Shown: in pieces, positions 24,975 through 50,700 of the stretch
Position numbering within the stretch: position 1 is the stretch's first letter
Layout: each line of letters begins with the position of its first letter
From: Kiritimatiellia bacterium
GTDB lineage: Bacteria > Verrucomicrobiota > Kiritimatiellia > RFP12 > UBA3636
Length of the DNA stretch: 64,000 nucleotides
Direction: 5' to 3'
NCBI GenBank assembly: GCA_045589455.1
Contig: JAZNPC010000010.1
Location: 149 to 64,148 of the forward strand
Position numbers and translations under genes: made by a program
Notes under the pieces: model-generated
Told to the model about the DNA's origin: nothing
Databases searched by the model: none
What the model saw: the letters and a program-made list of their open reading frames with translations, nothing else

Positions 24975-25340
24975 GGGCGACGGCTAATCCTACGCTGGCT
25001 CACGCGGAGACGCAGAGACGCAGAGCTAGCGTGATGCACGTGACGCCGAAGGGACGCAGAGACGCTGAGGGCGCGGAGGACGCGGGGCTGGTGTGATGGG
25101 TGTGGTGTTGGGGCGCGAATGCGCACATTACCGCTTGTTGTTGCCTTGTCTTATTGCGAAATCTAACGAAGCAATAAGGCAACTGCCAAGCGCTAATGTG
25201 TACGACCCACCAAGGCTTTTAAGACGAGGAGCGTGATGCACGTGATGGTGTTTTGGATGCACCAAGCTTGGTTGTGCGCTGCGCCGCGTGCGGCGCAGAG
25301 AACGCGCTTGTGTGATGGCTAGAAGTGCTAGTTTCAGCGG
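24975..25340. repeat. GC-rich repeat block including a ~200-bp element shared with 50301-50497
   Basis: 25025-25222 is near-identical to 50301-50497. It contains 'ggctaatcctacgctggct', 'gtgatgcacgtgacgccgaagggacgcagagacgc' and an internal hairpin cttattgc-N13-gcaataag (25150-25178). Confidence 0.85.
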
Positions 25341-25487
25341 GTGAACTACTCAGATGTATCTTTACTTAATATATTTAAAACCTATTGTTGAAAATAGGGG
25401 CGTTTTTTGCTAAAATTTATAGAAATAAATTTTTTATTTTTGTGTGAGTTTAAAGAATACTATAGATAAGAGATAAAGGATTAAAAG

Positions 25488-25880
25488 ATGAAGAAAATTC
25501 TAATGATTTGTTCTGTAGCCATGTCAGTCATGTTAATGGTAGTAATGTTGTCCGGGTGTGAATCTGCAGATGGTTATTCTATTGAGGTAAATGCTTCCTC
25601 ATATTCTGTAGGAAATGGTGGCACTGTCTATCTTTCGGCTTCTGGTTGGGATGATTATACTTGGTCGCTAAGTGATAACTCATTAGGTTATTTAAATAAG
25701 CTTAATGGTTCAAGTGTGATTTACACCTCACGTGCAGCATCTGGCACACAAAAGATAACTATTGTTGCACGTGGTTCTGGTGCCGTTGCAGAAACTCCAA
25801 CAGATAATAATTCAAGTAATAAGACACAAAAAGTCACCTCATCTCCTTTGGTTAGAACAATTGAGATTACACATAAATAA
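25488..25880 (+). CDS. Small lipoprotein of unknown function
   Basis: 130 aa with a signal peptide and lipobox-like LSGC (MKKILMICSVAMSVMLMVVMLSGCESADG). AAAGGA Shine-Dalgarno upstream. Confidence 0.6.
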   Translation: MKKILMICSVAMSVMLMVVMLSGCESADGYSIEVNASSYSVGNGGTVYLSASGWDDYTWSLSDNSLGYLNKLNGSSVIYTSRAASGTQKITIVARGSGAVAETPTDNNSSNKTQKVTSSPLVRTIEITHK

Positions 25881-25911
25881 TTTTGATAATTAAGATTAAG
25901 GATTTTTAAAT

Positions 25912-27933
25912 ATGGATAAAAGAAGAATTGTGGTAACCTCTGCGTTACCTTATGCAAATGGTGATATACATTTGGGCCATTTGGTAGAGTATCTACAGAC
26001 AGATTTTTGGGTTCGTTATCAGAAGCTTCGAGGCAATGAGTGCACATATGTTTGCGCTGATGATACACACGGCACACCAATTATGATTCGTGCAAAGAAG
26101 GATGGTATCACACCTGAAGAGCTAATTGCAGAGAGCTACAAGCGCCACACTGCAGATTTCTCTGAGTTTCAGATTAAATTTGATAATTTTTACTCTACAA
26201 ATTCTCCAGAGAACCTTGAGTTTTGTAAGCAGATTTATGCAAAGCTAAAGGAAAATAATGCGCTAGATTTCCGTAGTATTCCTCAGCTTTATTGCCCAAC
26301 AGATAAGATGTTCCTCCCAGATCGTTTTGTACGCGGCACTTGCCCTAAGTGCGGTGCAGAGGATCAGTATGGTGATTCCTGCGAGAAGTGTGGTGCAACT
26401 TATAACCCAACAGATTTGAAGGATGTTCACTGTTCTGTTTGTGGTGAGCGTAAGCTAGAAACTCGTGAGAGCGAGCACATCTTTTTCAATCTTGAGCAGT
26501 TTAAGGAATACCTACGCTCATGGTTAAAGGACCATACAGCAGAGGATGTTGCTAACAAGCTTTATGAGTGGTTTGATGAAGGTACAACTCTAATGCCATG
26601 GGATATTTCTCGTGATGCTCCATACTTTGGCTTTGAGATTCCTGATCATCCTGGCAAGTATTTCTATGTATGGCTAGATGCACCAGTAGGCTACATGGCT
26701 TCATTAAAGAATTGGTGTACCAAGAATAATGAGGATTTTGATGCTTGGTGGAATAATCCAGATGCAGAGCTTTATCATTTCATTGGTAAGGATATTGTCC
26801 GTTTCCACTGCTTGTTCTGGCCAGCAATGCTTCATGCAGCAGATTTTAAGGGCCCATCACAGGTATTTGTACATGGCTTCTTAACAGTTAACGGCAAGAA
26901 GATGAGTAAGTCACGCGGTACATTTATTAGTGCTCGTACATACTTGGATTGCCTAGACCCAGCATTCTTGCGTTACTACTATGCTTGCAAGCTAAATAAC
27001 ACAACTGATGACGTAGATTTAAATCTTGAGGATTTTGTACAGCGCGTAAATAGCGATCTTGTTGGTAAAATCACCAACCTCGCTTCACGTGGTGTTCAGA
27101 TGCTTAATAAGCGCCTAGACGATGGTATGGGTGTAATGGACGAAGAGGGCTTGAAGCTACGTGAGGAATTCTTGTCCCGTGCAGAGACTATAGCCGCTCA
27201 CTATGAAGCTCGCCGTTTCTCACAGGTTCCTGTTGAGGTATGTCGTCTAGCAGATTTGGCTAATGAATACTTTGATGCAAAGCAGCCATGGGCAACAATT
27301 AAGACAGACCCAGAGGCAACTCGCATTACATTGACCAACATCTTAAATCTCTTCCGCATAATGGCAATTTACCTCTCACCAATTCTTCCTGTTTATGCAG
27401 AGAAGGCAGCAGCGCTATTTGGTGAGCAGCCATATACATGGGATGATATCAATAAGAAGCTAGAAAATCAGAAGGTTGCTAAGTATGAATATTTGGCTTC
27501 TCGCGTACCACCTGAGAAGGTTGAAGAGATGGTAGAGAAGTCAAAGGTTCAGGCTGAAGCAGCAGCTGAGGCTCCTGCAGTACCTGCAATTCCTCTTAAG
27601 GCTGAGGTTGAATTCCCAGAATTTGATAAGGTAGATATGCGTGTGGCGCTAGTTGAGTCTGCAAGCTTTGTAGAAGGCTCAACAAAGCTACTTCAATTCA
27701 CCTTGGACCTTGGTCCTTTAGGTAAGCGCAATATCTTCTCTGGTATTCGTGCATACTATCCTGACCCACAGGTGTTGGTTGGCAAGAAGCTAATAGTTGC
27801 GGCTAATCTAAAGGCTCGTAAGATGCGCTTTGGCGTTTCTGAGGGTATGATTCTTTCTGCAGGCTCAGAGGAGAAGGGCTTCTCTGTTCTTACAGTTATG
27901 GATGATGCACAACCAGGTGATTTAGTTTCCTAA
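25912..27933 (+). CDS. metG: Methionine--tRNA ligase with C-terminal tRNA-binding (EMAP-like) domain
   Basis: 673 aa. HIGH-type motif (ANGDIHLGH), KMSKS motif, a Zn knuckle (CPKCGAEDQYGDSCEKCG) and a C-terminal VDMRVALV...KMRFGVSEGMIL domain. Confidence 0.95.
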   Translation: MDKRRIVVTSALPYANGDIHLGHLVEYLQTDFWVRYQKLRGNECTYVCADDTHGTPIMIRAKKDGITPEELIAESYKRHTADFSEFQIKFDNFYSTNSPENLEFCKQIYAKLKENNALDFRSIPQLYCPTDKMFLPDRFVRGTCPKCGAEDQYGDSCEKCGATYNPTDLKDVHCSVCGERKLETRESEHIFFNLEQFKEYLRSWLKDHTAEDVANKLYEWFDEGTTLMPWDISRDAPYFGFEIPDHPGKYFYVWLDAPVGYMASLKNWCTKNNEDFDAWWNNPDAELYHFIGKDIVRFHCLFWPAMLHAADFKGPSQVFVHGFLTVNGKKMSKSRGTFISARTYLDCLDPAFLRYYYACKLNNTTDDVDLNLEDFVQRVNSDLVGKITNLASRGVQMLNKRLDDGMGVMDEEGLKLREEFLSRAETIAAHYEARRFSQVPVEVCRLADLANEYFDAKQPWATIKTDPEATRITLTNILNLFRIMAIYLSPILPVYAEKAAALFGEQPYTWDDINKKLENQKVAKYEYLASRVPPEKVEEMVEKSKVQAEAAAEAPAVPAIPLKAEVEFPEFDKVDMRVALVESASFVEGSTKLLQFTLDLGPLGKRNIFSGIRAYYPDPQVLVGKKLIVAANLKARKMRFGVSEGMILSAGSEEKGFSVLTVMDDAQPGDLVS

Positions 27934-27955
27934 CAACTAATAGCCTAATAGCCAA

Positions 27956-28726
27956 ATGAAGCCTTATCCGCCACTTATTTTTGCACAATGGAAGCAGTCC
28001 TTATCGTTGCTACGAGAGGCACAGCAAAGCATTGGCACAGAGGGGCAGGATAAGGCTGTTTTGCGTGCGGCAGCATATATGCAGGCCTCAGCAGATGAGC
28101 ATTTACGGAGGCTTGCTGAGCTCTTGCATGTAGGGATGACTGGTGCCGAATTTCTTTGTGTGCTTGTGCCTGTGGAGCGTGTGGCTTCTCGAGACCATGT
28201 CACCGATGCTACTATGCTTGCAGAGGTAACGACAGACGATGCTGAGCAACCTTTAGCTCAGACTCTTCCTCTAATCGTTATTCTTGATAATTTACGCTCA
28301 GCTATCAATTTAGGCGGAATATTTCGTACCTCAGAATTTTTTGGTGTTTCAGAAATTTGGCTTTGTGGCTACACTGCCACACCAGAGCATGAGCATGTGG
28401 CAAAGTCAGCAATGGGAACAGACAAATTGGTCGCATGGCGCTATTTCGAAAATACATCAGAAGCAATTCTTGAAGCAAAGAAGCAGGGCTATCATTGCTA
28501 TGCTTTAGAAACCTCTCCAAATGCCAAAAATATAAATGAATTTAAATTTTCCTTCCCATGTGTGTTAGTTTTGGGTAATGAGAGATTTGGTGTCTCACAG
28601 GATGCATTAGCTTGCTGTGATGAGTTATTGGCAATACCGGGATTTGGTCGAAAGAATTCAATTAATGTAGCCAGTGCTTTTGCAATTGCAGCAAATCAAA
28701 TTAGTCATGCTTTTCGTAGTAGGTAG
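27956..28726 (+). CDS. TrmH/SpoU-family RNA 2'-O-methyltransferase with N-terminal extension
   Basis: SpoU motifs are present: NLGGIFRTSEFFG, LVLGNERFGVS, IPGFGRKNSINVASAF. Confidence 0.8.
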   Translation: MKPYPPLIFAQWKQSLSLLREAQQSIGTEGQDKAVLRAAAYMQASADEHLRRLAELLHVGMTGAEFLCVLVPVERVASRDHVTDATMLAEVTTDDAEQPLAQTLPLIVILDNLRSAINLGGIFRTSEFFGVSEIWLCGYTATPEHEHVAKSAMGTDKLVAWRYFENTSEAILEAKKQGYHCYALETSPNAKNINEFKFSFPCVLVLGNERFGVSQDALACCDELLAIPGFGRKNSINVASAFAIAANQISHAFRSR

Positions 28727-28731
28727 AATTT

Positions 28732-29352
28732 ATGGAACTCGGAGCAATTAAAAATCTAGCCTATGAGCTAATTGGCAATAAGGAAGAAGTTCCTCACGGA
28801 GTGGGATACCGCCTTGCTCATGGTTATAGAGTTGGTGCAATTGCAGAATGGATTGCACATGAGCTAGGAGAGAGCGATGAGCTACTTTTTGTTGCTGGCA
28901 TACTTCATGACATTGGTAAGGATAAGGCAGGACATCCAGAGGATGATGGAATAATGCATGGTCCGCGCGGAGCCGAGATTATTCGCAAGCAATTTATTCA
29001 TTTTATGAGCATAAATGAGCTTCAAAGAGTTGCTACAATGGTTGAAAATCATAATGCTCGCCCCAAAAGTAAGTGGTTTATCGATAAAGAGAAGCCACAG
29101 CATTCAACTGAGGTCTTAATACTTCAGGATGCAGATTTGCTAGATCATTTTGGTGAAGAAGGCATAAATATTACACTTAATTGGGGACGTTTTTTCAAAA
29201 AAACTCGCGAACAAATCCTTAAGGAATGGAAATATGGTGAGAGAGTAGCTCGAATGCATGAAGAGGTGCGCCGCTCTCTTAATTTTGATGTGTCAGTTCG
29301 TGAGTTTGATCGACGCCTAAAAATCATGCAGGATTACTTTTTAAAATTTTGA
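28732..29352 (+). CDS. HD-domain phosphohydrolase
   Basis: H...HD motif (AGILHDIGK) and a downstream LQDADLLDHFG. Confidence 0.75.
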   Translation: MELGAIKNLAYELIGNKEEVPHGVGYRLAHGYRVGAIAEWIAHELGESDELLFVAGILHDIGKDKAGHPEDDGIMHGPRGAEIIRKQFIHFMSINELQRVATMVENHNARPKSKWFIDKEKPQHSTEVLILQDADLLDHFGEEGINITLNWGRFFKKTREQILKEWKYGERVARMHEEVRRSLNFDVSVREFDRRLKIMQDYFLKF

Positions 29353-29483
29353 TTTGTCAGTTTTAGGGTTTTAATTACGTATTAATACTATAGCAGGATT
29401 GTTTTGCTAAATTTTGATTTGTCAGTTTTGGGGTTTTAATTACGTATTAATACTATAGCAGGATTGTTTTGCTAAATTTTGAT
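29346..29483. repeat. 65-bp tandem duplication (2 full copies plus an 8-bp start of a third)
   Basis: 'attttgat' recurs at 29346, 29411 and 29476. The two units differ by 1-2 nt (ttttagggtt vs ttttggggtt). The first unit starts in the last codons and stop of the HD gene. Confidence 0.9.
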
Positions 29484-29570
29484 GCTGTGTTTTAACGAAT
29501 AATAAGCACATACATATAGGCGATTTAGTAGTTTTGTTTTTTTGTTTTAAAAAAAGAAAGGGATATAATA

Positions 29571-30422
29571 ATGTTTACAATAGCATGTGGCAAATGTGGT
29601 CAGAATTATGAGGTTGATCAAGAGTATTGCGGTGCTTCATTTGAATGTGTTAGTTGTGGCGAGACAATAGTTGTGCCAATGCTGGAACAAGACAATAGCA
29701 AGGTATTTGTTCAACCTCAACCTCAACCTCGACCTCAGCAGCAGCCGTCACGGTTGAATTCTCAGCCGGTAGGAAATAGTTCTAAGTTAGTAATAAATAA
29801 AACAAGACCCCAAAGCCCTTCTAGAGTGTCTTCTACTTATTCTTCACCTTCCTCCTTCAAAAATCCATATTTATCCCAACGACCTAATCGTTCTAGCAAC
29901 ACATGGTTTAAACTAATATTTTTTATTATTGTTCTAGGATTAATAGGTGGTGGAGTTTACTTTTTTGTAAACGATTCAAAGAAGGATACTTCTACAAATG
30001 TTAGTGATAACAATGCTTCTGGGAAAAATAATGGAGGAGAAAGTAGAGATGATTCAACAATAGATATAAACGACTATAATGCACGTAAAAAATACGAGTC
30101 TAAGGATGCATCAAATGTTCCATTTAGAATTATGCAAGTGTTAAAAAGCGATGTAGAATCCGGCTTTACTTTTGTCTTGTGTGTACTACAGGAGCCAACA
30201 TCTGGAGGCAGATTTATGGATACAGAGGTCGTATTTGGTTTAATGTTTGACGGGAGTGACGTTTCGTCTATAAACTTTTCAAAAACATGGGTGGACGATC
30301 TGTATTGGGCGGGGTACTACACATATACAACTGTTGAAAATAAAGAAAACACGATTAAAATATTTACCGTTGATTTAGATCTATCGGTGGGGGCTTTGAA
30401 GGCACAAGGACTTCTTGATTAG
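29571..30422 (+). CDS. Zinc-ribbon membrane protein (N-terminal CxxC...CxxC, P/Q/S-rich linker, one TM, C-terminal domain)
   Basis: CGKCGQNYEV...CVSCGETIVVP, then the QPQPQPRPQQQP linker, then TM WFKLIFFIIVLGLIGGGVYFFV. AAAGGGA Shine-Dalgarno upstream. Confidence 0.6.
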   Translation: MFTIACGKCGQNYEVDQEYCGASFECVSCGETIVVPMLEQDNSKVFVQPQPQPRPQQQPSRLNSQPVGNSSKLVINKTRPQSPSRVSSTYSSPSSFKNPYLSQRPNRSSNTWFKLIFFIIVLGLIGGGVYFFVNDSKKDTSTNVSDNNASGKNNGGESRDDSTIDINDYNARKKYESKDASNVPFRIMQVLKSDVESGFTFVLCVLQEPTSGGRFMDTEVVFGLMFDGSDVSSINFSKTWVDDLYWAGYYTYTTVENKENTIKIFTVDLDLSVGALKAQGLLD

Positions 30423-30558
30423 TTATGTAATCACAAGACATATTGTAATCTATTTTAGAAATTCATTCTATTTTTTCTGGGGGAGGCAAAATGTATTTGG
30501 TTGTATTTGACTTATTTACCCATTAATACCCTGCATTTCTAACAATTAACCGTATTAC

Positions 30559-30654
30559 GCTCCTCATCTCAAAAATCTTGTGTGCGTACACACTGGCGCT
30601 TGGCAGTTGCCTTATTACTTCGAAGATTTCGTAATAGCAAGGCAATAACAAGCG
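30559..30654. repeat. Inverted partial copy of the ~200-bp repeat element
   Basis: Reverse complement of 25137-25231 / 50410-50500, with scattered substitutions. It retains the hairpin (cttattac-N13-gtaatagc here). Confidence 0.8.
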
Positions 30655-30713
30655 CCAGTGTTTTTGTCGTTGTATCCACCACGAGAGCTCTGCGCCCCAG
30701 CGTCTTCCCCGAC

Positions 30714-30808
30714 CACCATCCTGTCCACCGTCCTGTCCACCATCCTGTCCACCGTAGTTTTAACGTAGGTGGAAGTTTTAACGTAGGTGGAAGCCTTGGC
30801 GTAGGTGG
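30714..30808. repeat. Adjacent short tandem repeats: 12-bp x3.5 followed by 18-bp x3
   Basis: caccatcctgtc / caccgtcctgtc / caccatcctgtc / caccgt, then agttttaacgtaggtgga x2 plus agccttggcgtaggtgg. The 'ccacc' and 'ggtgg' cores are complementary. Confidence 0.85.
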
Positions 30809-30968
30809 TTGCGTCCTTTGGGCCCACGTAAGCCATCATTATAGCATTGCATCGAATTTAGGCCGATACTGCCCAATTAGCATTGAAACAGTAGTAAATC
30901 TATGGTAAAATAAAATTTCAAATTATGTAATAGAATTTCGTTAAAAATACAGTATTAAGGATAATAAA

Positions 30969-32210
30969 ATGGAAACAACAAAAAAGAATGTTGGTTTTAA
31001 TGGTAAGCAAATGATTATTTGGCTTGCTGCTCTAGTAATTGGTATCGTTGTAGGATTATGCTTTGCTTCAGATGGTGCAGTTATAAAGTTTTGTGACTTT
31101 ATAGCAGGTATCTATACTCGTTTATTTAAGTTTGTTGCTGTACCAACAATTGCACTTGTTATCACAACAACATTGGCTTCCCTAGGTGGTCAGAAGAATA
31201 CAGGTAAAATCTTTGGTTTTACAATTATGTATACAATTTTAACAACACTTGTTGCTTCAATTTTGGGAGCTGTTCTTTATGAGGTGATTGCTCCAAGATC
31301 AATCCCTCCGAAAATGATCGCTAGCAGTGCAGAGAAGGTTGCTAAGTATGAGGGTGATGTTTCTGGTGTGTATGAGCATATCCTAAATATTGTTCCAGAC
31401 AATGTAATCAATCCTTTTAGCAGTGGCAGTGTATTAAGCATCCTAATCATTGCTGCAGCTGTTGGTCTATCTCTAGCATTCATTAAGCGCACAGAAAATA
31501 CAGAGGCATTACTAAAGGGAATCAATGGTCTTCAGGAGGTTTTCTTTGCAATCATTCGTGCACTAGTATGGGCATTGCCACTAGGTATTATCGCGTTTGC
31601 TGCTCAGCTAGCAGTTCAGATGTCTGGCGAGATGGCTGTTGATTCAATTGGTAAGTATGTTGCTGTTGTTCTAGGTGGAAACCTAATTCAGTTCTTCATC
31701 ATTCTCCCATTGTTCCTACTAATCTCAGGTATCAATCCTCTACGCGTATTCAAGAATATGCTTCCAGCTGTATTGATGGCATTCTTTACAAAGAGCTCAA
31801 CAGCAACTCTTCCTGTAACAGTGGCTTCTGCAGAGAATAACATGAAGGCAAAGCCAGAGGTTGCTCGCTTTGTTCTACCTATGTGCTGCACAATCAATAT
31901 GAATGGCTGCGCTGCATTTATTCTTGTTACATCTCTATTTGTAATGCAGAATGGCGGCATTGAGTTGTCTATTGCAACAATAGCTATTTGGGTGTTGATT
32001 TCTGTTATTTCAGCAATTGGTAATGCTGGTGTGCCAATGGGTTGCTTCTTCCTAACACTATCCTTGATGTCAAGTGTTGAAGGAGCTCCTCTAGGTGTGC
32101 TAGGTGTAATTCTACCAATCTATGCAATTATTGATATGGTTGAGACAGGCGTTAACGTATGGTCTGACTCCTGCGTTTGCGCTATGGTAAATAAAAAGCT
32201 AGATAAATAA
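30969..32210 (+). CDS. Dicarboxylate/amino acid:cation symporter (DAACS family)
   Basis: 413 aa, polytopic, with family motifs (FFTKSSTATLPVT; CTINMNGCA). AAGGA Shine-Dalgarno upstream. Confidence 0.85.
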   Translation: METTKKNVGFNGKQMIIWLAALVIGIVVGLCFASDGAVIKFCDFIAGIYTRLFKFVAVPTIALVITTTLASLGGQKNTGKIFGFTIMYTILTTLVASILGAVLYEVIAPRSIPPKMIASSAEKVAKYEGDVSGVYEHILNIVPDNVINPFSSGSVLSILIIAAAVGLSLAFIKRTENTEALLKGINGLQEVFFAIIRALVWALPLGIIAFAAQLAVQMSGEMAVDSIGKYVAVVLGGNLIQFFIILPLFLLISGINPLRVFKNMLPAVLMAFFTKSSTATLPVTVASAENNMKAKPEVARFVLPMCCTINMNGCAAFILVTSLFVMQNGGIELSIATIAIWVLISVISAIGNAGVPMGCFFLTLSLMSSVEGAPLGVLGVILPIYAIIDMVETGVNVWSDSCVCAMVNKKLDK

Positions 32211-32235
32211 CTAAATTTCTATAGGGGAGGTATCT

Positions 32236-32697
32236 ATGATTAAAGACAAAATTTCAAATTCAGCACTTTATTTAAATGCACATCCTTTATTTGCAAAGGC
32301 ATTTGAATGGCTTAAAGAATTTGGGGCAACAGCACCAGATGGTAAGGTCTTTATCGAGGGCGAGGATTTAATTGCTATCCCTCAGCATTATACCTCTCAT
32401 CCATATACTGATGATAAGTATGAAACCCACAAGCGCTACATCGATATTCAGGTAGTGCTAGAGGGTGAGGAGCTTGTTTATTTAGGTAATCCAGATCAGA
32501 TGCCAGTAAATATACCATTCGATGTAGAGAAGGATATTGATTTTCGTACTGGCTTTGGAGAGCCTACAACCCTAAGTGCTGGTGAGTTTATGGTTATCTA
32601 TCCACATGAGGCACATGAGCCTGGTGTTTCAACTGCAGCTGGAGATAAGCTTGTTCACAAGATTATCTTCAAGGTTGCTGTTAGTCGCCTAAAGTAA
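32236..32697 (+). CDS. YhcH/YjgK/YiaL-family (DUF386) cupin-like protein
   Basis: 153 aa with the family-typical core HKRYIDIQVVLEGEE...IYPHEAHEPG. Confidence 0.7.
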   Translation: MIKDKISNSALYLNAHPLFAKAFEWLKEFGATAPDGKVFIEGEDLIAIPQHYTSHPYTDDKYETHKRYIDIQVVLEGEELVYLGNPDQMPVNIPFDVEKDIDFRTGFGEPTTLSAGEFMVIYPHEAHEPGVSTAAGDKLVHKIIFKVAVSRLK

Positions 32698-32706
32698 AGC
32701 GCAACT

Positions 32707-33597: not shown

Positions 33598-33618
33598 ATT
33601 TTGTTTTAAGGAGCTTTT

Positions 33619-40779: not shown

Positions 40780-41559
40780 ATGAATATTAAGCAGGTAGAA
40801 AAAAAAGCCTACATAATTTCATTTATTGTACATGCAGTACTAATAGTGGGGCTTGTTGTGGCTTCGATAATTAACGAGTTTTCTTGTACTCAAGAGCCCG
40901 TTGATGATGCCATGCCAATAGAGTTCACTGTTGACGTATCTTCTTTTGAGCAACAAGACGAACCAGTGGGAGATTTAATTGATGATTTAGAGCCCGAACC
41001 AGAACCCGAGCCAGAGCCAGAGCCAGAACCCGAGCCAGAGCCTGAGCCAGAGCCAGACCCTGATGCAGTGTCTGAGCCAGAGCCAGAGCCTCAACCTGAA
41101 AGACCTAGGCGCAAGCCTATTCAGACTTCTGATAAGGTTGTTATGATTAACCAGCCAAATATTCAACCACCTCCTTCTACACCTTCTCCAAGGGAAAGAA
41201 GTGATGATCTTACAGAAGAAGAGGTTAAGAAGCTTCTTGAAATTGGAGCAACAGCATCGGATCATACTTCGGTCCCTGGCGAACGTGAGCGTTGCCTTGC
41301 ATTGGTGTATAAGAAATTCTATGAAGCATGGCGTCGTCCAAGTCTCGCACCAACAGATGTTGCACGTGGTGCTGAGTTGACAATTTGGTTGGGCGATAAT
41401 GGTAGTATAAAAAAATATGAGCTTACTCGTTCTTCCGGTAATCGTCAGCTTGATGCTTCTGTTAAAGATGCTGCTCGTGTTGTTCGCCGTATACCAGGAT
41501 TAACATCAGGATTTATTAGAGATAATAGGACTTTAACAATCGAATTTAACCTCGAATAA
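40780..41559 (+). CDS. tonB: TonB-like energy transducer with (EP)n spacer
   Basis: N-terminal TM, an EPEPEPEP... run (nt ~40990-41100) and a C-terminal TonB/TolA-like domain (TRSSGNRQLDASVKDAARVV). Confidence 0.7.
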   Translation: MNIKQVEKKAYIISFIVHAVLIVGLVVASIINEFSCTQEPVDDAMPIEFTVDVSSFEQQDEPVGDLIDDLEPEPEPEPEPEPEPEPEPEPEPDPDAVSEPEPEPQPERPRRKPIQTSDKVVMINQPNIQPPPSTPSPRERSDDLTEEEVKKLLEIGATASDHTSVPGERERCLALVYKKFYEAWRRPSLAPTDVARGAELTIWLGDNGSIKKYELTRSSGNRQLDASVKDAARVVRRIPGLTSGFIRDNRTLTIEFNLE

Positions 41560-41573
41560 GGATAAGATGATTT

Positions 41574-42380: not shown

Positions 42381-42397
42381 TTGTAGGAAGGGATAAA

Positions 42398-42790: not shown

Positions 42791-42816
42791 CTAGAGCAAT
42801 TTAAGTTTTATATAGA

Positions 42817-43746
42817 ATGATAGAAGAGAAATATCTTGTTGAGCCTTTTGAAGGTAAATCTCCTAGAGCGGATGCTTGGCTAGCTAAGACAAGTGAACAC
42901 TCACGTTCTCGCATTCAAAAGCTTTTTGAGCAAGGAAATATATTGTGTAATGGTGTTCCTTTGGATACATTGTCACATAGATTACAATTTGGCGAATGCT
43001 ATACAATAACTATTCCAGATGCAGCACCTACAGGAATTCAGCCAGAAAATATACCTTTAGACATCTTGTATGAGGATGATGCAATTGTTGTTGTGAATAA
43101 GCCACCTCAGCTTGTTGTTCACCCAGCACCAGGTCATGAGAGTGGAACGCTTGTTAATGCATTGCTTTATCATTATCCAGGAATCTTTTCTATAGGAGGA
43201 GAGGATCGTCCAGGAATTGTGCATCGCCTAGATCAGGACACCTCTGGAGCTTTAATTGTTGTCAAGACGGATAAAGCAATTGTAGCTCTTCAAGAGGCTT
43301 TCCAAAAAAATGAAGTAAAAAAGACTTATAAAGCCTTGGTTCATGGAGTGCCTTATCCAATAGCAGGTCGCATAGAGACCAATATAGGGCGCAACCCACA
43401 GGATCGAAAAAAGATGTGTGTATTGCAGGAGCATGGTAGAAATGCTATTACTGAGTACACAACTGAGCGCGACTTTGGTAATGCTTCTCTTGTAAGCGTA
43501 AATATTGAGACGGGACGCACGCATCAGATCCGTGTGCACATGAACTATTTGGGCAATCCGGTAATAGGCGATCAGACCTATGGTAGCTTCCGTAGGGATA
43601 TGCGTATGCCAATAAAGCTAAAGCGTCAGATGCTTCATGCAGCTAAGCTAGAGTTTATGCATCCTGTGCGCAAGCGAGAGCGAGTAGTGGTAGAGGCCCC
43701 GCTTCCAGCAGATATGCTTGAGCTAATCGAAGCATTAAAGGCGTAG
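42817..43746 (+). CDS. rluD: RluA-family 23S rRNA pseudouridine synthase (RluD-like)
   Basis: S4-like N-terminus, the catalytic HRLDQDTSG motif and GRTHQIRVH. Confidence 0.88.
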   Translation: MIEEKYLVEPFEGKSPRADAWLAKTSEHSRSRIQKLFEQGNILCNGVPLDTLSHRLQFGECYTITIPDAAPTGIQPENIPLDILYEDDAIVVVNKPPQLVVHPAPGHESGTLVNALLYHYPGIFSIGGEDRPGIVHRLDQDTSGALIVVKTDKAIVALQEAFQKNEVKKTYKALVHGVPYPIAGRIETNIGRNPQDRKKMCVLQEHGRNAITEYTTERDFGNASLVSVNIETGRTHQIRVHMNYLGNPVIGDQTYGSFRRDMRMPIKLKRQMLHAAKLEFMHPVRKRERVVVEAPLPADMLELIEALKA

Positions 43747-43800
43747 TGTGGCGCACGTGACGCTAAAGGGACGCCTTGCACACCAAGTGCGCACTCATTT
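43747..43800. repeat. Short copy of the 'cacgtgacgc..aagggacgc' repeat module between convergent genes
   Basis: 'gtggcgcacgtgacgctaaagggacgcc' resembles 'gtgatgcacgtgacgccgaagggacgca' at 25030, 50254 and 50306. Confidence 0.6.
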
Positions 43801-43821
43801 TAAGAAATCCTATGCTTTTTG

Positions 43822-45228
43822 TTATTCCTGCGAGTTATCGTCAATTGGATTTCCACCAAAGGCGGTGAATATTTCTACTGCATATGCTGAAAGTGCTTGA
43901 TTGTGTAAAATAATTGCTTTTTCTGCGTTTAAATAGTTGCGCTGATGAGTTAGTACGGTAACAAAATCACATTCTCCTTGCTCATAAAGTAGCTGTGATG
44001 CAGTAACACATTCTTCATAATATTTTAGTGCTTCCTCAAGCTTTTCCTCACGCTCATATTCGTGCCGGTAATTACTTAGAGCAGTCTCTGCCTCAGTTAC
44101 AGCATTAATAACAGTCTCCTCATATCTAAGTAGAGCTTCATTTGCTTTTTCCTCTGCTGCCTCTTGTGCTGCCTTTAGTTTTCCTCCTTCAAACAAAGGT
44201 ATACTAATGCGCGGGCCAAATCCTGCTGTACGTAGTCCATCAGACCAGCTAGACAACGAATCTGCAGCTGCACCTATGCTTGCACTAATAGAAATCTGAG
44301 GGAAACGATTTGCCTTTGCCACACCAATTCGTGCTGTTGCAGCATTAAGCGCTTCCTCCGCTTGGCGAATGTCTGGCCTACGTTCAAGTAGTGCTGCAGG
44401 AGTGGAAGCTGGGAATAAGCCATTTCGAGGAATTGGTGCCTTCTCTTCCAATAGCTCTGTATATTCACCAGGATATTTCCCAAGCAGCTGCTCAATCAAG
44501 TATTGCTGTGCATTAAGCTTTGCTCTCATATTAGGTAGCTCGGCTTCTGCTGTGCGAACCTGAGCTTCTGCGGCAATAACATCAATTCCTGTTGTAAAAC
44601 CAGCCTCACCCTTAGCCCTAGAAATTTCTAAAGACTGCTTTTGAAGCTCAAGGTTTTTTTCTGCAATTTCATATTGAGCTTGTAGTGAACGATAGCTGAA
44701 ATAGGCTTGAGCAACCTCAGCGCATAGAATTAGCTTTGCATCTCTTACAGAATAACCAGCTGCATTTAGCTCTGCTGTTGCTGCTTCAATAGAGCGACGA
44801 TTTGCTCCAAAGAAATCTAGTACCCATGAAGCAGAAACACCAACAGAGTAGTTCCCTCCAGAGGAATCTGGATTCCAACGCTTCTCTTCAGAGCCACTTC
44901 CAGTTGCAGAAATAGAAGGGTAGAGCGATGCCCCAGTTTGTTGAAGTGTTAGCTCTGCTTGCTTAAAGCGTGAAACAGCTTGCTGCAATGATAAATTGCT
45001 ATCAATTGCTTCCTTCATCAGCTGCACAAGAATCGGATCATTAAAGCTTTCCCAAAAATTGATAGAAAGTAGAACGTTTTCATCCTCCTCGTTAGTAGGA
45101 TTGAGAGAAAGGTTTTCATAATTTTCTGGATGATTTTTTAGTGTCGGTCTTACAGCATTTGGTCCAAGAAGACAACCAGAGGTAAGTAATGCAGGTAAAA
45201 CGATTGCAAATAATGATAACTTTTTCAT
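43822..45228 (-). CDS. Outer-membrane efflux lipoprotein (NodT/TolC family)
   Basis: ORF 43822-45267. I prefer the ATG at 45228 (MKKLSLFAIVLPALLTSGC lipobox), which removes the overlap with the upstream permease. It shows the typical two-repeat OMF sequence. Confidence 0.85.
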   Translation of the reverse strand: MKKLSLFAIVLPALLTSGCLLGPNAVRPTLKNHPENYENLSLNPTNEEDENVLLSINFWESFNDPILVQLMKEAIDSNLSLQQAVSRFKQAELTLQQTGASLYPSISATGSGSEEKRWNPDSSGGNYSVGVSASWVLDFFGANRRSIEAATAELNAAGYSVRDAKLILCAEVAQAYFSYRSLQAQYEIAEKNLELQKQSLEISRAKGEAGFTTGIDVIAAEAQVRTAEAELPNMRAKLNAQQYLIEQLLGKYPGEYTELLEEKAPIPRNGLFPASTPAALLERRPDIRQAEEALNAATARIGVAKANRFPQISISASIGAAADSLSSWSDGLRTAGFGPRISIPLFEGGKLKAAQEAAEEKANEALLRYEETVINAVTEAETALSNYRHEYEREEKLEEALKYYEECVTASQLLYEQGECDFVTVLTHQRNYLNAEKAIILHNQALSAYAVEIFTAFGGNPIDDNSQE

Positions 45229-45244
45229 AATAAATCTCCTTTCC

Positions 45245-46603
45245 TTATTCATAGCGAAGTGCATCAATTGGATTTAGACGCGCTGCACGCCATGCTGGGT
45301 AAAAACCAAAGCATACACCGATAGTGGCAGACACTGCCACAGCCATTGCTATTGCGCCAATAGATGGAGCAACTGGCCAGCCATTCATGCTTGAAACAAT
45401 TGTAGAACAAAGTCTTCCACCCAAAATTCCTAGCAAACCTCCAAGTAAGCAAAGTATCAATGATTCTACAAGAAATTGTATTAGAATATCCTTGCCCTTT
45501 GCTCCAACTGCCATTCTTAATCCAATTTCACGTGTGCGTTCAGTAACAGAAACAAGCATAATATTCATGATACCAACGCCACCCACAATTAGAGAAATAA
45601 GTGCAACAATTAACAATAGACTTGTCATTAACTCTGAGGTTTGAGTAAATGTGTTAAGAAGCTCAGTCATATCGCGAATTTCAAAGTCATTAGGCTCATC
45701 ATCAGCAAGCTTGTGACGTCTCCGCAATAGCTCTGTTATTTCATCAACAGCGCTTTGAATTGAGCTGGCATCTGTTGCAGCAACCATAATTTGATTGATG
45801 TTATTAAAGCGAATAGGCATTAGGTAGTTTTTGGATTGGGTAGCATCGCGAGTAGGATACAATTGTACAGCTTTTGTTGGGTAGCGATCTCCTCGAGAAT
45901 AACTACTAGAGCTTGATGAAGCTGTTGCTGCCATTCCTCCACCACGAGAAAGTCTGTTTCGCATAGTGGTCCATGGGATGACGATTAAATCATTTTGGTC
46001 CATGCCCATGAGATTAGCGCCTTTAGGAGCTAGTGTGCCACGTACGGTAAATATTACATTGTTCAAGCGGATGGTTTGTCCAATAGGTGAATCTTCTCCA
46101 AATAACTCTTTAACTACAGTTTGACCTAGCATACAAACACAGGCTGCTGTATTAACATCTAGTGCTGTGAAAAATTCTCCCTCAGCAAGCTCCCATTCAT
46201 TAACATCAAAATATTGCTCATTACCAGATGCAATCTGTCCTGGAGTCCAGTTTTTATTTCCATAAACTGCTTGAACCGTTGCTCCACGTACAACAGGTGT
46301 TGCTGCTTTAACAGATGGACACTCACGAATGATTGCATCGCAGTCTGCACTAGTAAGTGTAATGCCAGTGCCTGAACCAGTACTAACACCTCCAGTACGT
46401 ATCGATGTAGGGGAAATCATGAGCATATTTGAACCCATATTTGAAATTGAGGTTTCAATTTGCCCTTTAACACCAGAGCCGATTTCCATCATCGTAATTA
46501 CGGCTGCAATACCAATTACAATGCCTAACATTGTAAGGATAGATCTTGTTATATTTCTACGCAATGCCTTGATTGCTGTTATAAAGGGTTGTGTAATATT
46601 CAT
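45245..46603 (-). CDS. ABC transporter permease (MacB/FtsX-type)
   Basis: 452 aa with GGVGIMNIMLVSVTERTREIGLRMAVGA and a FYPAWRAARLNPIDALRYE end. Confidence 0.88.
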   Translation of the reverse strand: MNITQPFITAIKALRRNITRSILTMLGIVIGIAAVITMMEIGSGVKGQIETSISNMGSNMLMISPTSIRTGGVSTGSGTGITLTSADCDAIIRECPSVKAATPVVRGATVQAVYGNKNWTPGQIASGNEQYFDVNEWELAEGEFFTALDVNTAACVCMLGQTVVKELFGEDSPIGQTIRLNNVIFTVRGTLAPKGANLMGMDQNDLIVIPWTTMRNRLSRGGGMAATASSSSSSYSRGDRYPTKAVQLYPTRDATQSKNYLMPIRFNNINQIMVAATDASSIQSAVDEITELLRRRHKLADDEPNDFEIRDMTELLNTFTQTSELMTSLLLIVALISLIVGGVGIMNIMLVSVTERTREIGLRMAVGAKGKDILIQFLVESLILCLLGGLLGILGGRLCSTIVSSMNGWPVAPSIGAIAMAVAVSATIGVCFGFYPAWRAARLNPIDALRYE

Positions 46604-46604
46604 T

Positions 46605-47306
46605 TTACACCTCCTTTATTAAATCGCTATTAGCGATAAGTCCATCCTTGATATGAATTGTGGTTTTTGTATAATCACAAACCTCAGCATCATGTGTTAC
46701 AAGAATAATTGTAATATTATCCTCTTTATTGAGCTGCTGAAACATTCTTAAAATTTCATCGGTTGTAACAGAATCAAGATTTCCAGTTGGCTCATCAGCA
46801 AAAAGAATTTTTGGTCGATTAATCAGTGCTCGGGCTATTGCAACACGCTGCTGCTGTCCACCGGAAAGCTGAGCAGGGTGATGGTGCATTCGTTCCTTTA
46901 GACCAAGCCTTATTAATAGCTCTTCTGCCCATTCTTTGTTTTCCTTCTTGCTTGCTCTTGTTTTGCTATATTCGAGTGGCATTAGCACATTTTGGAGCGC
47001 AGATGTACGAGAAAGCAAATTGAAGTTTTGAAATACAAAACCAATTCTGCCAGAACGAAGCTCAGCACGCTCATTTGCGGAAATGTTAGCCACATTTTTA
47101 CCATCTAACCAATATTCGCCAGAGGTTGGGTTGTCAAGAAAACCAAGAATATTCATAAGAGTTGATTTTCCAGATCCAGAGGCACCCATAAGAGCAACTA
47201 GATCGCCCTGTGCAATGCTAAGGGAAATTCCTTTTAGAACAGGAACTTCTAGCCCACCATTAAGCTTATAGGTTTTTGTAAGGTTTTTTAACTCAATTAA
47301 ACTCAT
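46605..47306 (-). CDS. ABC transporter ATP-binding protein (MacB-type)
   Basis: Walker [25 protein letters not shown] and [12 protein letters not shown]. Confidence 0.9.
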
Positions 47307-47373
47307 ATTTTCCTCCTTTCCAAATTAATGCAAAGGCTTATTAATGATAGTAGTGTATATACTATTACTATTG

Positions 47374-48654
47374 TTAGCGGCGAGGAGAACTACCTGAGCC
47401 TCTCTTAGGCTTTGGCATATTTGGCATAAATGGATTCTTTGTTTCAGATTTACTATCATCTTCAGATATTACTTTTGATGATGTAATGATTTCCATTCCT
47501 TCAACAAGCTCAGGCGATTCAATCGCTGCCATTGTGCCATTATTGAGTATTACATTAACCTTAATTGGGCGGATGTTGCCATTTGCTTCTTTAATATGAA
47601 CAATTGCTTCATTTGGGGCTATATCTGGTAAAGGAGCTCCAGCAGGTCTCCATCTAATAGCTCTAGCAGGGATGATTAGAGCATCTTCTGCCTTTTCAAT
47701 TTCAAAAAGAACATTAGCTGTTAGATAAGGTATTAGTTCCATATTTGCATTGTCCACATCAATCTCAACGATGTAGGTAACAACATTGGAGGTTATTGTT
47801 GCATTGTAGCGTATACGTTTAACTGTTCCCTCATATACTTTTCCTGGGAATGAGTCAACAGAGAAAGAAACAGACATGCCTTCTTTTATGCTACCTACAT
47901 CTGCCTCATTTACAGCAGCCCAAATTTGCATTTTATCTAATTCTTTTGCTACTAAAAACATTGATGATACAGACATACTAGAGACAACGGTTTGTCCTAG
48001 GTTTACTCTACGATCAATAACAACACCATCAACGGGAGATGATATTGTGCAATAAGCAAGATTTCTTTCTGCCTTTTCTACATTTGCCCTAGCTTGCACC
48101 ACCTGAGCTTCAGCTTGAAGAATTTTGGCTTCAGCTGAAATTTTGTCAGCAACAGCAATTTTATAGCTTGCTTCATATGCATCATATGAGCTTTGTGAAA
48201 GAGCAGGGCCAACACCAATCTTTTGTGCTCTATTCCAATCCTTTTCTGCTTGCCATAAACGAGCCTCTGCTTGTTGAACAGCAGCCTGTGCAGCTGTAAC
48301 ATTTGCTAGTGCATTACTATATGAAGCTTGAGCAACTTCAAAATCTGCTAGATATGTCACATCATCAAGTTTGGCAAGAATCATTCCATTTGTAACAGTA
48401 GAACGATAATCTATTGTGTTGCCATTTGTATCCGTACCAAATGATATAATTTGTCCAGAAACTTGAGCACCCACGTCAATTAGTTCCTCTGGTTCTAGAG
48501 TGCCAGATGCAGAGATAGTTGTCGCTATTGTACCGCGAGATAGCTTCTCTGTTGTATAAACTGTTACTTCTTCGTTACCTTTGAGTAGTACAGGTAGCGT
48601 AATTGCTCCTATTATAGCAATCCCTAATATTATAAATATAACCTTCTTTTTCAT
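47374..48654 (-). CDS. Efflux periplasmic adaptor (MacA/HlyD family)
   Basis: 426 aa with a membrane anchor, a coiled-coil hairpin, ISSPVDGVVIDRRVNLGQTV and a basic C-terminal tail. Confidence 0.85.
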   Translation of the reverse strand: MKKKVIFIILGIAIIGAITLPVLLKGNEEVTVYTTEKLSRGTIATTISASGTLEPEELIDVGAQVSGQIISFGTDTNGNTIDYRSTVTNGMILAKLDDVTYLADFEVAQASYSNALANVTAAQAAVQQAEARLWQAEKDWNRAQKIGVGPALSQSSYDAYEASYKIAVADKISAEAKILQAEAQVVQARANVEKAERNLAYCTISSPVDGVVIDRRVNLGQTVVSSMSVSSMFLVAKELDKMQIWAAVNEADVGSIKEGMSVSFSVDSFPGKVYEGTVKRIRYNATITSNVVTYIVEIDVDNANMELIPYLTANVLFEIEKAEDALIIPARAIRWRPAGAPLPDIAPNEAIVHIKEANGNIRPIKVNVILNNGTMAAIESPELVEGMEIITSSKVISEDDSKSETKNPFMPNMPKPKRGSGSSPRR

Positions 48655-48674
48655 ATTGCTTCTCCTCGTTTATT

Positions 48675-48708
48675 TGAATTTGCATTCATAATAGTGAATT
48701 TATATTCA
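48675..48708. promoter_or_regulatory. Two 14-bp palindromes TGAAT-N4-ATTCA spaced 20 bp apart (candidate operator pair) upstream of the macA-like operon
   Basis: tgaatttgcattca (48675-48688) and tgaatttatattca (48695-48708), 21-54 nt upstream of the minus-strand start at 48654. Confidence 0.35.
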
Positions 48709-48916
48709 TTTGTCAAGTGGCTTTTTTTATTTTTTTTCTATGTTTTGTTAAGCATCAAAGTTGTTTGCCATTTAAACCTAGCACTTTTAGCCACCACGTG
48801 CCATGGTATTGATTGCGAGGTTTAGATGTATTCTGTTGATAATTGAGAGCCCCATAAGTATGTTGATAGTAAATTGATAATTTGATAAAATGATTCTAAT
48901 AAATAGGGGAATAAAT

Positions 48917-50239
48917 ATGAAAAAGTTTTTACTCTTTGTTGTTTTATTAGCACTTTCAGTGAATGTATTTGCTGAAAATAAATTTAGTCCTGAAACAGTA
49001 GCCGCGCAAGAGGCTTTTATAAATGATGGTTTTGGTATTTTTATTCATTGGGGTATTTATGCAATTCATGGGAAGGGCGAGTGGTGGCTTAATAAATCAA
49101 AAATGCCTTTAGAGGAATATGAGGCTGTAGCATCTCAATTTAATCCAACAAATTTTGATGCAAATGCTTGGGCTGAAGCTTTTGCTGATGCTGGTGCACG
49201 CTATGTAACAATTACCTCACGCCACCATGATGGCTTTTCTATGTTCGCTACCACAAATACAACCTACGATATTGTGGATGCAACACCATATAAGCGCGAT
49301 CCGATGGCTGAGCTTGCTACAGCATGTAAGAAGCATAACTTGAAGCTAGGCTTCTATTATTCTCTCCTTGATTGGCGCCGAGAGGATTTTCCTCATTATA
49401 AAGGCCGCGGAGATTATGATTCATATTATGCCTTTATGAAGGGGCAGCTGGGAGAGCTCTTAACTAATTATGGACCAATTAATTGCATATGGTTTGATGG
49501 GCAATGGGCGCGCACTGACGCTGGCTTTGATTGGCGCTTGCCTGAGCTATTTGATTATGTTCGCTCAATTCAACCATCCTGCTTAGTTGGTAATAATTCA
49601 CATGTATCACTTCAGCCTGGTGAGGATTTCCAAATTTGGGAAATTAATTATCCAGGAGGTCACACAGGTCACATGAATGATAAGCAAACCATTGCAACAA
49701 ATGTACCTTTGGAATGCTGCTGGTCAATGACCTCTGATGCATGGGGATATCAGCCTAATGATTTGATGGAAAAGAATCCATCAAAGGAGCTCATTCGAAA
49801 GCTAGTGCGCACTCGTTTTCTTGGCGCAAATCTTCTACTAAATGTTGCTCCTGCTCCAGATGGATCCATTCCTGAACCCGCATTAGAGCGTCTCAAGGAT
49901 ATTGGAGAGTGGATGGATAAGTATGGCGATACCATTATAGATGCAAAGCCTGGTCATATTTATTTGGGAGGTCACAAGGAGTTCTCTAATGTAATTTCTA
50001 CTATCTCTGAGGATGGTAAAACAATACATTTGCATATTTTAACAGATGGCAAGAAGGATTTTGGATTATGGATCCCATTCCCAGATACAATTGTAGCAAT
50101 CACCAATCGCATGACAGGTGCTGAGCTACCATTTGTGCAGAAAATGCATCATTCAAAGCGCTACTTATCTCTACACCTAGATTTAGAGGCTGATGTGCCA
50201 GACACAATTCTCGACATCACTATCGACCCTTCAAACTAA
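48917..50239 (+). CDS. Alpha-L-fucosidase (GH29), secreted
   Basis: ORF 48890-50239. I prefer the ATG at 48917 (AGGGGA upstream; MKKFLLFVVLLALSVNVFA signal). GH29-type segments are FGIFIHWG, TSRHHDGFSMF and WFDGQW. Confidence 0.85.
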   Translation: MKKFLLFVVLLALSVNVFAENKFSPETVAAQEAFINDGFGIFIHWGIYAIHGKGEWWLNKSKMPLEEYEAVASQFNPTNFDANAWAEAFADAGARYVTITSRHHDGFSMFATTNTTYDIVDATPYKRDPMAELATACKKHNLKLGFYYSLLDWRREDFPHYKGRGDYDSYYAFMKGQLGELLTNYGPINCIWFDGQWARTDAGFDWRLPELFDYVRSIQPSCLVGNNSHVSLQPGEDFQIWEINYPGGHTGHMNDKQTIATNVPLECCWSMTSDAWGYQPNDLMEKNPSKELIRKLVRTRFLGANLLLNVAPAPDGSIPEPALERLKDIGEWMDKYGDTIIDAKPGHIYLGGHKEFSNVISTISEDGKTIHLHILTDGKKDFGLWIPFPDTIVAITNRMTGAELPFVQKMHHSKRYLSLHLDLEADVPDTILDITIDPSN

Positions 50240-50248
50240 TCTCTAGCA

Positions 50249-50700
50249 GCTAGCGTGATGCACGTGACGCCGAAGGGACGCAGAGACGCAGAGACGCAGA
50301 GCTAGCGTGATGCACGTGACGCCGAAGGGACGCAGAGACGCAGAGGGCGCGGAGGACGCGGGGCTGGTGTGATGGGTGTGGTGTGGGGCGCGAATGCGCA
50401 CATTCCCGCTTGTTGTTGCCTGGGTTTATTGCGAAATCTAACGAAGCAATAAGGCAACTGCCAAGCGCTAATGTGTATGACCCACCAAGGCTTTTGAGGT
50501 TGGGGGCGTGAAAAACAATCAACAATCAACAGTCTACTGCCAACAATGGAGTCTTAACGTCTAATGTCGTTCAATTGTCTATCGTCTAATTGTCACATAG
50601 GAACACCCGTTTGGTGAAGGCAACCCGCCTACTAGCTCAGGAGAAATATAGTCTATCTCCACATCTTCCTTAGGCGTGAGCCATCGCAGACGCCATCTCC
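50249..50700. repeat. GC-rich repeat block: 52-bp tandem duplication, the ~200-bp element, and 'cgtctaa' modules
   Basis: 'gctagcgtgatgcacgtgacgccgaagggacgcagagacgcagag' starts at 50249 and again at 50301. 50301-50497 matches 25025-25222. 50550-50600 ('cgtctaatgtcgttcaattgtctatcgtctaattgtc') resembles 2090-2140. Confidence 0.85.

Follow-up and report, generated by a model that had tools for sequence, protein, structure and literature searches.

A 64-kb stretch of contig JAZNPC010000010.1 from a Kiritimatiellia bacterium (all 64,000 nt of it referred to below as the window) carries three copies, A, B and C, of a non-coding unit built around a long imperfect hairpin. They probably belong to a lineage-specific family of interspersed mosaic repeats, with several subtypes, in uncultured gut Kiritimatiellae. 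Each copy lies between co-directional genes on the plus strand. Copy A is downstream of a DevBCA/MacB-like ABC exporter operon and upstream of a small lipoprotein-like open reading frame (ORF) and metG; copy B is downstream of an alpha-L-fucosidase gene; and copy C is between the gene for a 283-aa zinc-ribbon membrane protein (upstream) and a dicarboxylate symporter gene.

Copies A (25002–25236) and B (50248–50511), both on the plus strand, are 94% identical over 235 nt by BLAST, and repeat detection resolved the match into two gapless blocks (25002–25112 with 50278–50388, 97%; 25109–25236 with 50384–50511, 91%). Copy C (30554–30666) is inverted: the repeat-detection arms I10 and I11 pair 25167–25204 and 50442–50477 with 30585–30622 at 92% identity, and BLAST stretches the match to 30554–30661. 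The 21-mer AATAAGGCAACTGCCAAGCGC occurs exactly in all three copies, with none expected by chance (100 shuffles). The block of about 200 bp is a chain of modules, and the same modules are also found singly elsewhere in the window. The parts of the copies are as follows.

24955–25023, plus strand: neighbouring module adjoining copy A, from another dispersed family (GTGATGGCTA...GGCTAATCCTACGCTGGCTC), followed by (ACGCAGAG)x3
25024–25069, plus strand: copy A, module 1, with the header mini-hairpin GCGTG-ATG-CACGT(GA), CGCCGAAGGGACGC and a GACGC array with a period of about 8 nt
25070–25123, plus strand: copy A, G-rich linker (GGGCGCGGAGGACGCGGGGCTGGTGTGATGGGTGTGGTGTTGGGGCGCGAATGCG), module 2, common to A, B and a copy in the related contig L016
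25124–25200, plus strand: copy A, imperfect hairpin of 77 nt (−43.2 kcal/mol, z −3.5; 112.8 bits by covariance model)
25201–25233, plus strand: copy A, tail (TACGACCCACCAAGGCTTTTAAGACGAGGAGC), homologous across all subtypes
25229–25245, plus strand: second header motif, AGCGTGATGCACGTGAT, after the tail of copy A, opening the next, different module
30554–30589, minus strand: copy C, tail, with a small hairpin GTGTGTACGCACAC and then AAGATTTTTG on the minus strand
30590–30661, minus strand: copy C, hairpin of 72 nt (z −6.4 and −6.7 for the two strands; 93 bits)
30666–30810, minus strand: copy C, 5′ part, a diverged linker (…GCAGAGCTCTCGTGGTGGATACAACGACAAAA) plus other tandem arrays
43741–43786, plus strand: solo, diverged module-1-like sequence between convergent genes (61% by repeat detection; 84% over 31 nt by BLAST)
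50248–50345, plus strand: copy B, module 1 twice in tandem, starting 9 nt past the fucosidase stop codon
50346–50398, plus strand: copy B, G-rich linker
50399–50475, plus strand: copy B, hairpin with two pair-breaking substitutions relative to A (105.8 bits, z −1.4)
50476–50511, plus strand: copy B, tail

The module at 24955–25023 is not common to copy B apart from the 8-mer array, and tandem-repeat detection placed a period-8 array at 25002–25025. The arrays in the 5′ part of copy C are a 12-mer repeated 3.4 times (30713–30753) and an 18-mer repeated 2.9 times (30756–30808).

An earlier note on this DNA, made from the sequence alone, had described A and B as near-identical copies of about 200 bp that start within about 120 nt of a plus-strand stop codon, with a 52-bp tandem duplication of the 5′ module in B. 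All of this was borne out: the copies begin 9–117 nt past stop codons, and the two starts of module 1 in B, at 50248 and 50300, are 52 nt apart. The third copy had been described as inverted and truncated. The inversion stands but the truncation does not; C is a diverged full unit, with a homologous tail and with its 5′ part swapped for different tandem arrays.

Further copies and the hairpin fold

Because the repeats are rich in G+C and the genome is rich in A+T, few stop codons occur on their antisense strand, and gene callers annotate ORFs there. Further copies were sought via the peptides of these spurious ORFs (first P0001 and P0002, then a 165-aa three-frame chimera, which led to 15 proteins), and the contigs encoding them, from metagenome assemblies in ENA, were scanned with a covariance model of the hairpin. 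Run on the window with filters off, the model returned A, B and C only, the next best match scoring 15 bits. In the related contigs it located another 20 distinct copies, spread over at least 11 additional intergenic regions; with A, B and C this makes 23, in at least 14 gene contexts. Every copy is intergenic, both orientations occur, and the genes upstream of the additional copies include yidC, uvrC, a Fic gene and a GH3 gene. When a representative library of 1.84 billion proteins was searched with a profile, at least 38 clusters of spurious repeat ORFs were recovered at E < 0.001, with further subtypes among them. The spurious proteins (P0001–P0045) are recorded as hypothetical proteins of 47–214 aa in metagenome-derived sets, and show motifs such as NTLALGSCLIASKDKAITKATTSGSV and SASLRRHVHHAS. 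As annotation artefacts, they have already entered public protein databases. The hairpin repeat family is widespread in this lineage.

In copy A, the outer stem of the hairpin (CACATTACCGCTTG/CAAGCGCTAATGTG, 14 bp, interrupted by a single C.C mismatch) leads to an internal loop, followed by a TTGCCTT/AAGGCAA stem and an apical ATTGC/GCAAT stem closed by a 13-nt loop. The outer stem of copy C is a perfect 14 bp, in which T-A has become C-G, A-T has become G-C and the C.C mismatch is repaired. Its apical stem shows a compensating change from G-C in A and B to A-T (alignment columns 45/61), as had been noticed earlier. The central hairpin was first drawn as cttattgc/gcaataag flanked by ttgcc/ggcaa; a hairpin is indeed present, but it is far larger (about 77 nt, 26–31 pairs, with the outer 14-bp stem), and the two proposed segments have one G in common, so that both cannot form fully.

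In family-wide folding, all 23 distinct copies form a hairpin of 26–31 pairs, with z-scores from −3.3 to −9.7. When the 23 copies were aligned, 90% of cells were paired and seven of the 21 tested pairs had changes on both sides. None of 500 shuffles reached the observed pairing values, and slid controls fell to 25–42% paired. RNAalifold, with no structure imposed, recovered the outer and middle helices and had compensatory changes at 8 of 15 pairs (for example, columns 20/70, GC in 11 copies and AU in 10). Within three of four subtypes, stems varied 3–7 times less than unpaired positions: substitution rates in stem and unpaired positions were 0.024 and 0.080 for type II, 0 and 0.062 for type III, and 0.023 and 0.161 for type IV, and did not differ in type I. 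The hairpin fold is the constrained part of the unit, and the earlier proposal of a conserved, co-varying fold under selection holds on the 23 copies, with the caveats that the copies are related, the subtypes few, and that in individual copies such as B some pairs are broken without compensation. The family provides a clean case of a fold maintained by compensatory change across at least five subtypes. A basal helix between the GTGGTGG of the linker and a GACCAC of the tail was dropped, as it was not consistently above shuffled flanks.

The unit as a whole is about 190–240 bp long and has a fixed order: a header, GCGTG-ATG-CACGT(GA) (GCGTGATGCACGTGA); a segment ending in GAAGGGACGC; an array of 8–10-mers containing GACGC, variable in length among copies; a linker with GTGGTGG; the imperfect hairpin of 72–77 nt; and a tail of about 35 nt with the consensus GTWCGMCC..AAG..GAGAYGMGGAGC. 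Five hairpin subtypes (I–V) can be distinguished. Type I comprises A, B, C and one copy in L016; type III has a short apical stem; and in type IV the mid-stem CGCTTG/CAAGCG is exchanged for GGAATGAG/CTCATCC. A mismatch 7–8 pairs from the hairpin base is kept in most type I–IV copies (C.C in types I–III, C.A or C.T in type IV) and is repaired in copy C and in type V. The apical sequence TCGAAGCAAT is conserved in position across subtypes.

Units also combine with one another and with other repeats. Two type III units stand in tandem in L033, with a period of 192 nt, and in five gene contexts a type IV unit faces a type II or III unit tail-to-tail. These convergent composites are 78–88% identical over 470–730 bp and have ragged ends; the three copies in the window are solitary. 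A composite in L019 holds a nested member of another repeat family, with the same 18-mer, CGTCCCTTCTTCGCACTT, on both sides. The header occurs six times in the window against 0.7 expected and heads different modules, and different units are joined by a short motif, GCGTGATGCACGTGA or AAGTGCGAAGAAGGGACGC. As read from these arrangements, the repeats appear to be a mosaic of modules joined at common motifs.

The centre of the convergent pairs is A+T-rich, with a palindromic ATTATAAT, a heptamer array (AATGAAG)n of 2–7 copies and the motif GGTAGAGTTGAGTGGTTTTTTCTCC; it was seen at L015 9915–10020 and at the same position in L018, L019, L025, L034 and L035, and has no counterpart in the window. 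In L018, a single gene for an AAA_14 and DUF4143 ATPase (8235–9566) lies between convergent hairpin pairs and is followed by a Fic gene; the region 7749–10217 may be an inserted block bounded by repeats.

Sister species and strains

In its best tblastn segment, the metG of the window is 97–98% identical in amino acids to Kiritimatiellae metagenome-assembled genomes (MAGs) from cattle, yak and roe-deer rectum, and the aligned region has 82–86% nucleotide identity. Comparison with sister species covers two sites in the window, those of A and C. The sister-species contigs L002–L005 have metG and the small ORF, and L005 also has the promoter region of the small ORF (window 25377–25487), but the repeat block was not found in the syntenic regions of L002–L005. 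The L005 spacer is 123 bp with a textbook terminator (GGGGCGTCC-TTCG-GGACGCCTC-TTTT), whereas its counterpart in the window is about 470 bp of G+C-rich repeats. L004 is without window 29350–30874, which includes the 283-aa ORF, copy C and its arrays, and has an HD-domain gene directly joined to the symporter gene. Where the sister species are without A and C, flanking genes or larger blocks differ too. Copies A and C therefore lie at synteny breaks, a location that makes the copies candidate drivers or markers of genome plasticity in the lineage.

The L005 terminator (9323–9365) resembles repeat module 1 (GACGCCGAAGGGACGC, window 25046–25061); the two GACGC sequences are direct in module 1 and inverted in the terminator.

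Two Logan contigs, L001 and L017, encode proteins identical to those of the window, and each ends in a repeat-rich spacer. L001 breaks off 38 nt into copy A, at 25039 of the window, and L017 starts 214 nt upstream of the gene after copy C, within the arrays beside C. The contigs end in these spacers because multicopy repeats break short-read assemblies, which is relevant for annotation and binning of these gut bacteria. Contigs from different samples of the same strain are 99–100% identical.

L001 is also without about 360 bp within or beside a sodium:solute symporter gene (window 19129–19524, L001 5878–5910), the protein being 629 aa in the window and 506 aa as called in L001. Identity falls from 98.6% to 93.4% at this gap, which suggests a recombination boundary between the window strain and L001.

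An exact 21-mer scan of 185,579 species-representative genomes, a set that does not include the window itself, gave no matches. Two scans of viral contigs likewise gave none, nor did BLAST against plasmids and phages. In an exact look-up, none of 10 spurious ORFs from the window was on record, and neither was the fucosidase. A 19-mer scan of JGI metagenomes returned eight matches, six of which were ribosomal protein L35 (rpmI) coding sequence (KHKATAKRF) while the other two (L011, L012) were due to chance.

Interpretation and rival explanations

Interspersed hairpin repeats, such as repetitive extragenic palindromes (REP) and bacterial interspersed mosaic elements (BIMEs), ERIC, BOX, Correia elements and neisserial intergenic mosaic elements (NIMEs), are common in well-studied bacteria, where they affect mRNA stability, termination, rearrangement and strain typing. 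None were found described in Kiritimatiellota, a phylum known mainly from MAGs; a full-text search with the class name and "repetitive extragenic" found no paper. The units are best read as interspersed mosaic repeats of the REP/BIME, NIME, BOX or Correia kind. The family itself is new but of a well-known kind, and introduces no new principle.

Adjacent palindromes in BIMEs are described as often being in alternating orientation (PMC2817692). The present units match this through the convergent pairs of type IV with type II or III in five contexts, and so display the BIME combination of alternating palindromes, other conserved motifs and intergenic location only. They are also like REP/BIME in being imperfect palindromes that are strictly intergenic and multicopy, form mosaics with other short motifs, and keep their fold through compensatory change. 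They differ in that the hairpin is 72–77 nt compared with 20–40 nt for a REP, and in that a tandem GACGC array and a header motif form part of every unit. The unit is not a REP doublet (REPIN) because its arms are not themselves palindromic. No RAYT gene (Y1 transposase, PF01797), as in REPIN-RAYT systems, was seen in the window or the related loci.

BOX elements of Streptococcus pneumoniae are modular (boxA-boxB(n)-boxC), intergenic, about 100–250 bp long and present in both orientations, with a stable predicted stem-loop. The variable copy number of an internal module is paralleled here by module 1, present once in A and twice in B. The sequences are unrelated, the stem-loop here forms inside a single module and not between terminal modules, and the units here also chain with other families through common junction motifs. 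In NIMEs, RS units are separated by dRS3 repeats, while Correia elements have a TA target duplication and 26-bp terminal inverted repeats. The present units are like NIMEs in forming intergenic mosaics of different units joined by a short motif, and like Correia elements in that they could form transcribed hairpins; unlike these, they show no TA duplication and no 26-bp terminal inverted repeats, and their junction motifs are unrelated to dRS3.

The earlier note had also suggested a miniature inverted-repeat transposable element (MITE). In favour of this, the units are short, non-coding, hairpin-capable and dispersed in both orientations, and are not at the two comparable sister-species sites. 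The terminal inverted repeats and target-site duplications that it proposed to look for were not found in the aligned copies. The unit start (AGCGTGATGCACGTG) and end (...GAGGAGCG) have no inverted relation, the internal hairpin being the only inverted repeat in the unit, and no duplicated 2–10-mer flanks the hairpin or the unit. A direct repeat of GCGTGATGCACGTGA on both sides of copy A was considered as a target-site duplication and rejected, as it is the header of the next module and does not recur at copies B, C and E. The ends are ragged and module-wise, and neither the 64-kb window nor about 190 kb of related loci yielded a cognate insertion sequence or related transposase. Overall, the units are closer to REP/BIME, NIME or BOX mosaics than to a classical MITE.

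Both the mode of spread and a possible function of the units in transcripts are inferred. Whether as single-stranded DNA or RNA, the fold might be needed for copying or retention of the unit, which could be mobilised in trans by an enzyme encoded elsewhere, after the manner of REP/REPIN or MITE-like elements. Alternatively, copying might proceed through recombination at the common header and junction motifs. Read-through from an upstream gene would place a very stable stem-loop in the 3′ untranslated region (UTR), where it may, as a side effect, impede transcription or exonucleases.

Several points weigh against the interspersed-repeat interpretation. The window encodes no transposase, RAYT, integrase or reverse transcriptase, and the gene tables of the related loci list no mobilising enzyme (transposase, RAYT or integrase). 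Neither a target-site duplication nor a clean filled/empty pair with exact junctions was found, and mobility is therefore deduced from the distribution only. Of 12 scorable type I–III copies, 10 have the same orientation as the upstream gene (two-sided binomial about 0.04, uncorrected for relatedness), and the canonical strand has more G.U pairs than its complement (29 against 9); both findings would better fit a role at the RNA level. The route via long spurious ORFs favours adjacent pairs of units, so the picture of pairing and context may be distorted. On the other side, type IV is mostly antisense (four of six scorable copies, two being sense), and this, the behaviour as mosaic modules and the location at synteny breaks point to the DNA level. 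Both strands fold about equally well, the reverse being on average 1.8 kcal/mol more stable (standard deviation 3.4), and this lack of strand preference fits a DNA-level palindrome.

The strongest rival, a possible but distinctly less favoured explanation, is that the unit is a cis-acting 3′ UTR RNA that terminates or insulates transcription or shields the mRNA 3′ end, selected at each locus with repetition secondary. It draws support from the sense bias and G.U excess described above, and from the short distance of A and B from the preceding stop codons. Like a Rho-independent terminator, the unit is a stable stem-loop just downstream of genes, and in copy C the long stem is followed directly by TTTTT on the plus strand (30661–30665), with a small hairpin plus TTTTT on the minus strand; type I has TTTT about 19 nt beyond the stem. 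The L005 spacer carries a textbook terminator instead of the unit, and canonical terminator-like sites between 30 and 50 kb of the window are not enriched (20 against 15.2 ± 3.5 expected) and are mostly within genes. However, the T-run is not conserved: a run directly after the stem was seen only in C on the plus strand, no run is present in types II and III, and types IV and IIb show CTTATTAAG. The stem is also 3–4 times the usual length and interrupted by loops, half of the paired copies point in the wrong direction, 2 of 12 type I–III copies are antisense, and a terminator scanner did not call the large hairpins. Of the options raised earlier, a canonical terminator is thus not supported, as the T-run is inconsistent. 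The absence of strand preference in folding energy, the pair-breaking substitutions in B and the embedding of units in mosaics with unrelated modules, unexpected for a dedicated terminator, also count against this rival, as does Rfam 15, which gave no match in the window at gathering thresholds and, at E ≤ 1, only miRNA-precursor models (18–21 bits against thresholds of 60–78).

It is improbable, as an explanation in its own right, that the units are protein-binding or recombination sites acting as DNA, with the GACGC arrays and hairpin as binding platforms and the repeats marking or promoting rearrangement. REP/BIME sequences bind gyrase, IHF and Pol I, and dRS3/NIME sequences are hot spots for recombination and integration. 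Consistent with such sites are the 8–10-nt period of GACGC in the arrays, the conserved positions of the apical sequence and stem mismatch across subtypes, the location of A and C exactly at synteny breaks and of B about 1.5 kb before a low-G+C island, and the flanking of the L018 AAA_14/DUF4143 gene by two convergent pairs. We know of no binding protein, and synteny breaks may merely be places that tolerate insertions; this rival is in any case compatible with, not exclusive of, an interspersed repeat family.

A more novel but improbable reading is that the units are substrates of an undescribed mobilisation system of Kiritimatiellota, or just as well a new class of 3′ UTR RNA structure with its own processing enzyme. 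For the former, a single-stranded DNA transposase or recombinase, or a retroelement, would recognise the long hairpin with its fixed mismatch and cut or join at the common header GCGTGATGCACGTGA, and the modules would be shuffled into mosaics located at points of genome rearrangement.

An independently transcribed small RNA gene in several copies, also raised earlier, is very unlikely. The hairpin is stable and conserved, and a weak promoter-like TTGGCA-18-TAGATT (9/12) lies inside it on the minus strand in A and B, but this match is no better than chance and belongs to the palindrome itself. A conserved frame of promoter and terminator is missing, as are an Rfam family and any strand preference in folding energy, and the occurrence in both orientations with variable module content speaks against a defined transcript.

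Integron attC-like sites marking gene cassettes are suggested by imperfect hairpins after unrelated genes, in which the structure is better conserved than the sequence and a mismatch is kept, but can be set aside with near certainty: the R″/R′ core sites (RYYYAAC / GTTRRRY) are missing, the stem base being ACAC.../...GTGT, the window copies are separated by about 5 and 20 kb that include metG and other housekeeping genes, both orientations occur, and the window encodes no integrase.

A template/variable repeat pair of a diversity-generating retroelement was rejected, since the A/B differences are not adenine-specific, the copies are non-coding and follow stop codons, and the window has no reverse transcriptase. 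A G-quadruplex array was rejected on the loops of 9–12 nt between G-runs, and CRISPR and retron non-coding RNA readings were considered and rejected as well.

Other repeats and neighbouring genes

Two intergenic regions of 1.2–1.5 kb, at window 1200–2100 and 6650–7900, are full of other G+C-rich repeat families. They comprise CCTCTCCGTGTCTCCGTTC...CACACTACGTGTGCTCCG...TTTCGCCGAAGGC units, a 152-bp tandem repeated 2.5 times (6815–7188) and (AGTTTGAC)n arrays. The same family is found in L015, L019, L025 and L039, beside or nested in hairpin units, and about 3 kb of L019 without called genes is built of its units of about 150 bp. A third dispersed motif, GGCTAATCCTACGCTGGCTC, is present as an exact 20-mer at 20983 (minus strand), 24982 (plus strand) and 37192 (plus strand), all intergenic, with none expected; each site is preceded by a header of the GTGATG(CACGTG) type.

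The low-G+C island downstream of copy B (about 51500–64000) has 25–34% G+C compared with about 40% elsewhere. Its genes encode two dynamin-family GTPases, a 1102-aa HerA/FtsK-like ATPase, a non-specific DNA/RNA endonuclease and several ORFs without a Pfam match; it looks like a horizontally acquired island, possibly one with anti-phage function.

Upstream of the 283-aa ORF (29571–30422), whose zinc-ribbon/transmembrane product has no Pfam match, is a 65-bp tandem repeat (2.2 copies, 98% matches) at 29328–29483. A 6-nt periodic array, (AGAGCC)n, at 40965–41099 lies within a TonB-like gene, where it encodes a Pro/Glu-rich spacer of an ordinary kind.

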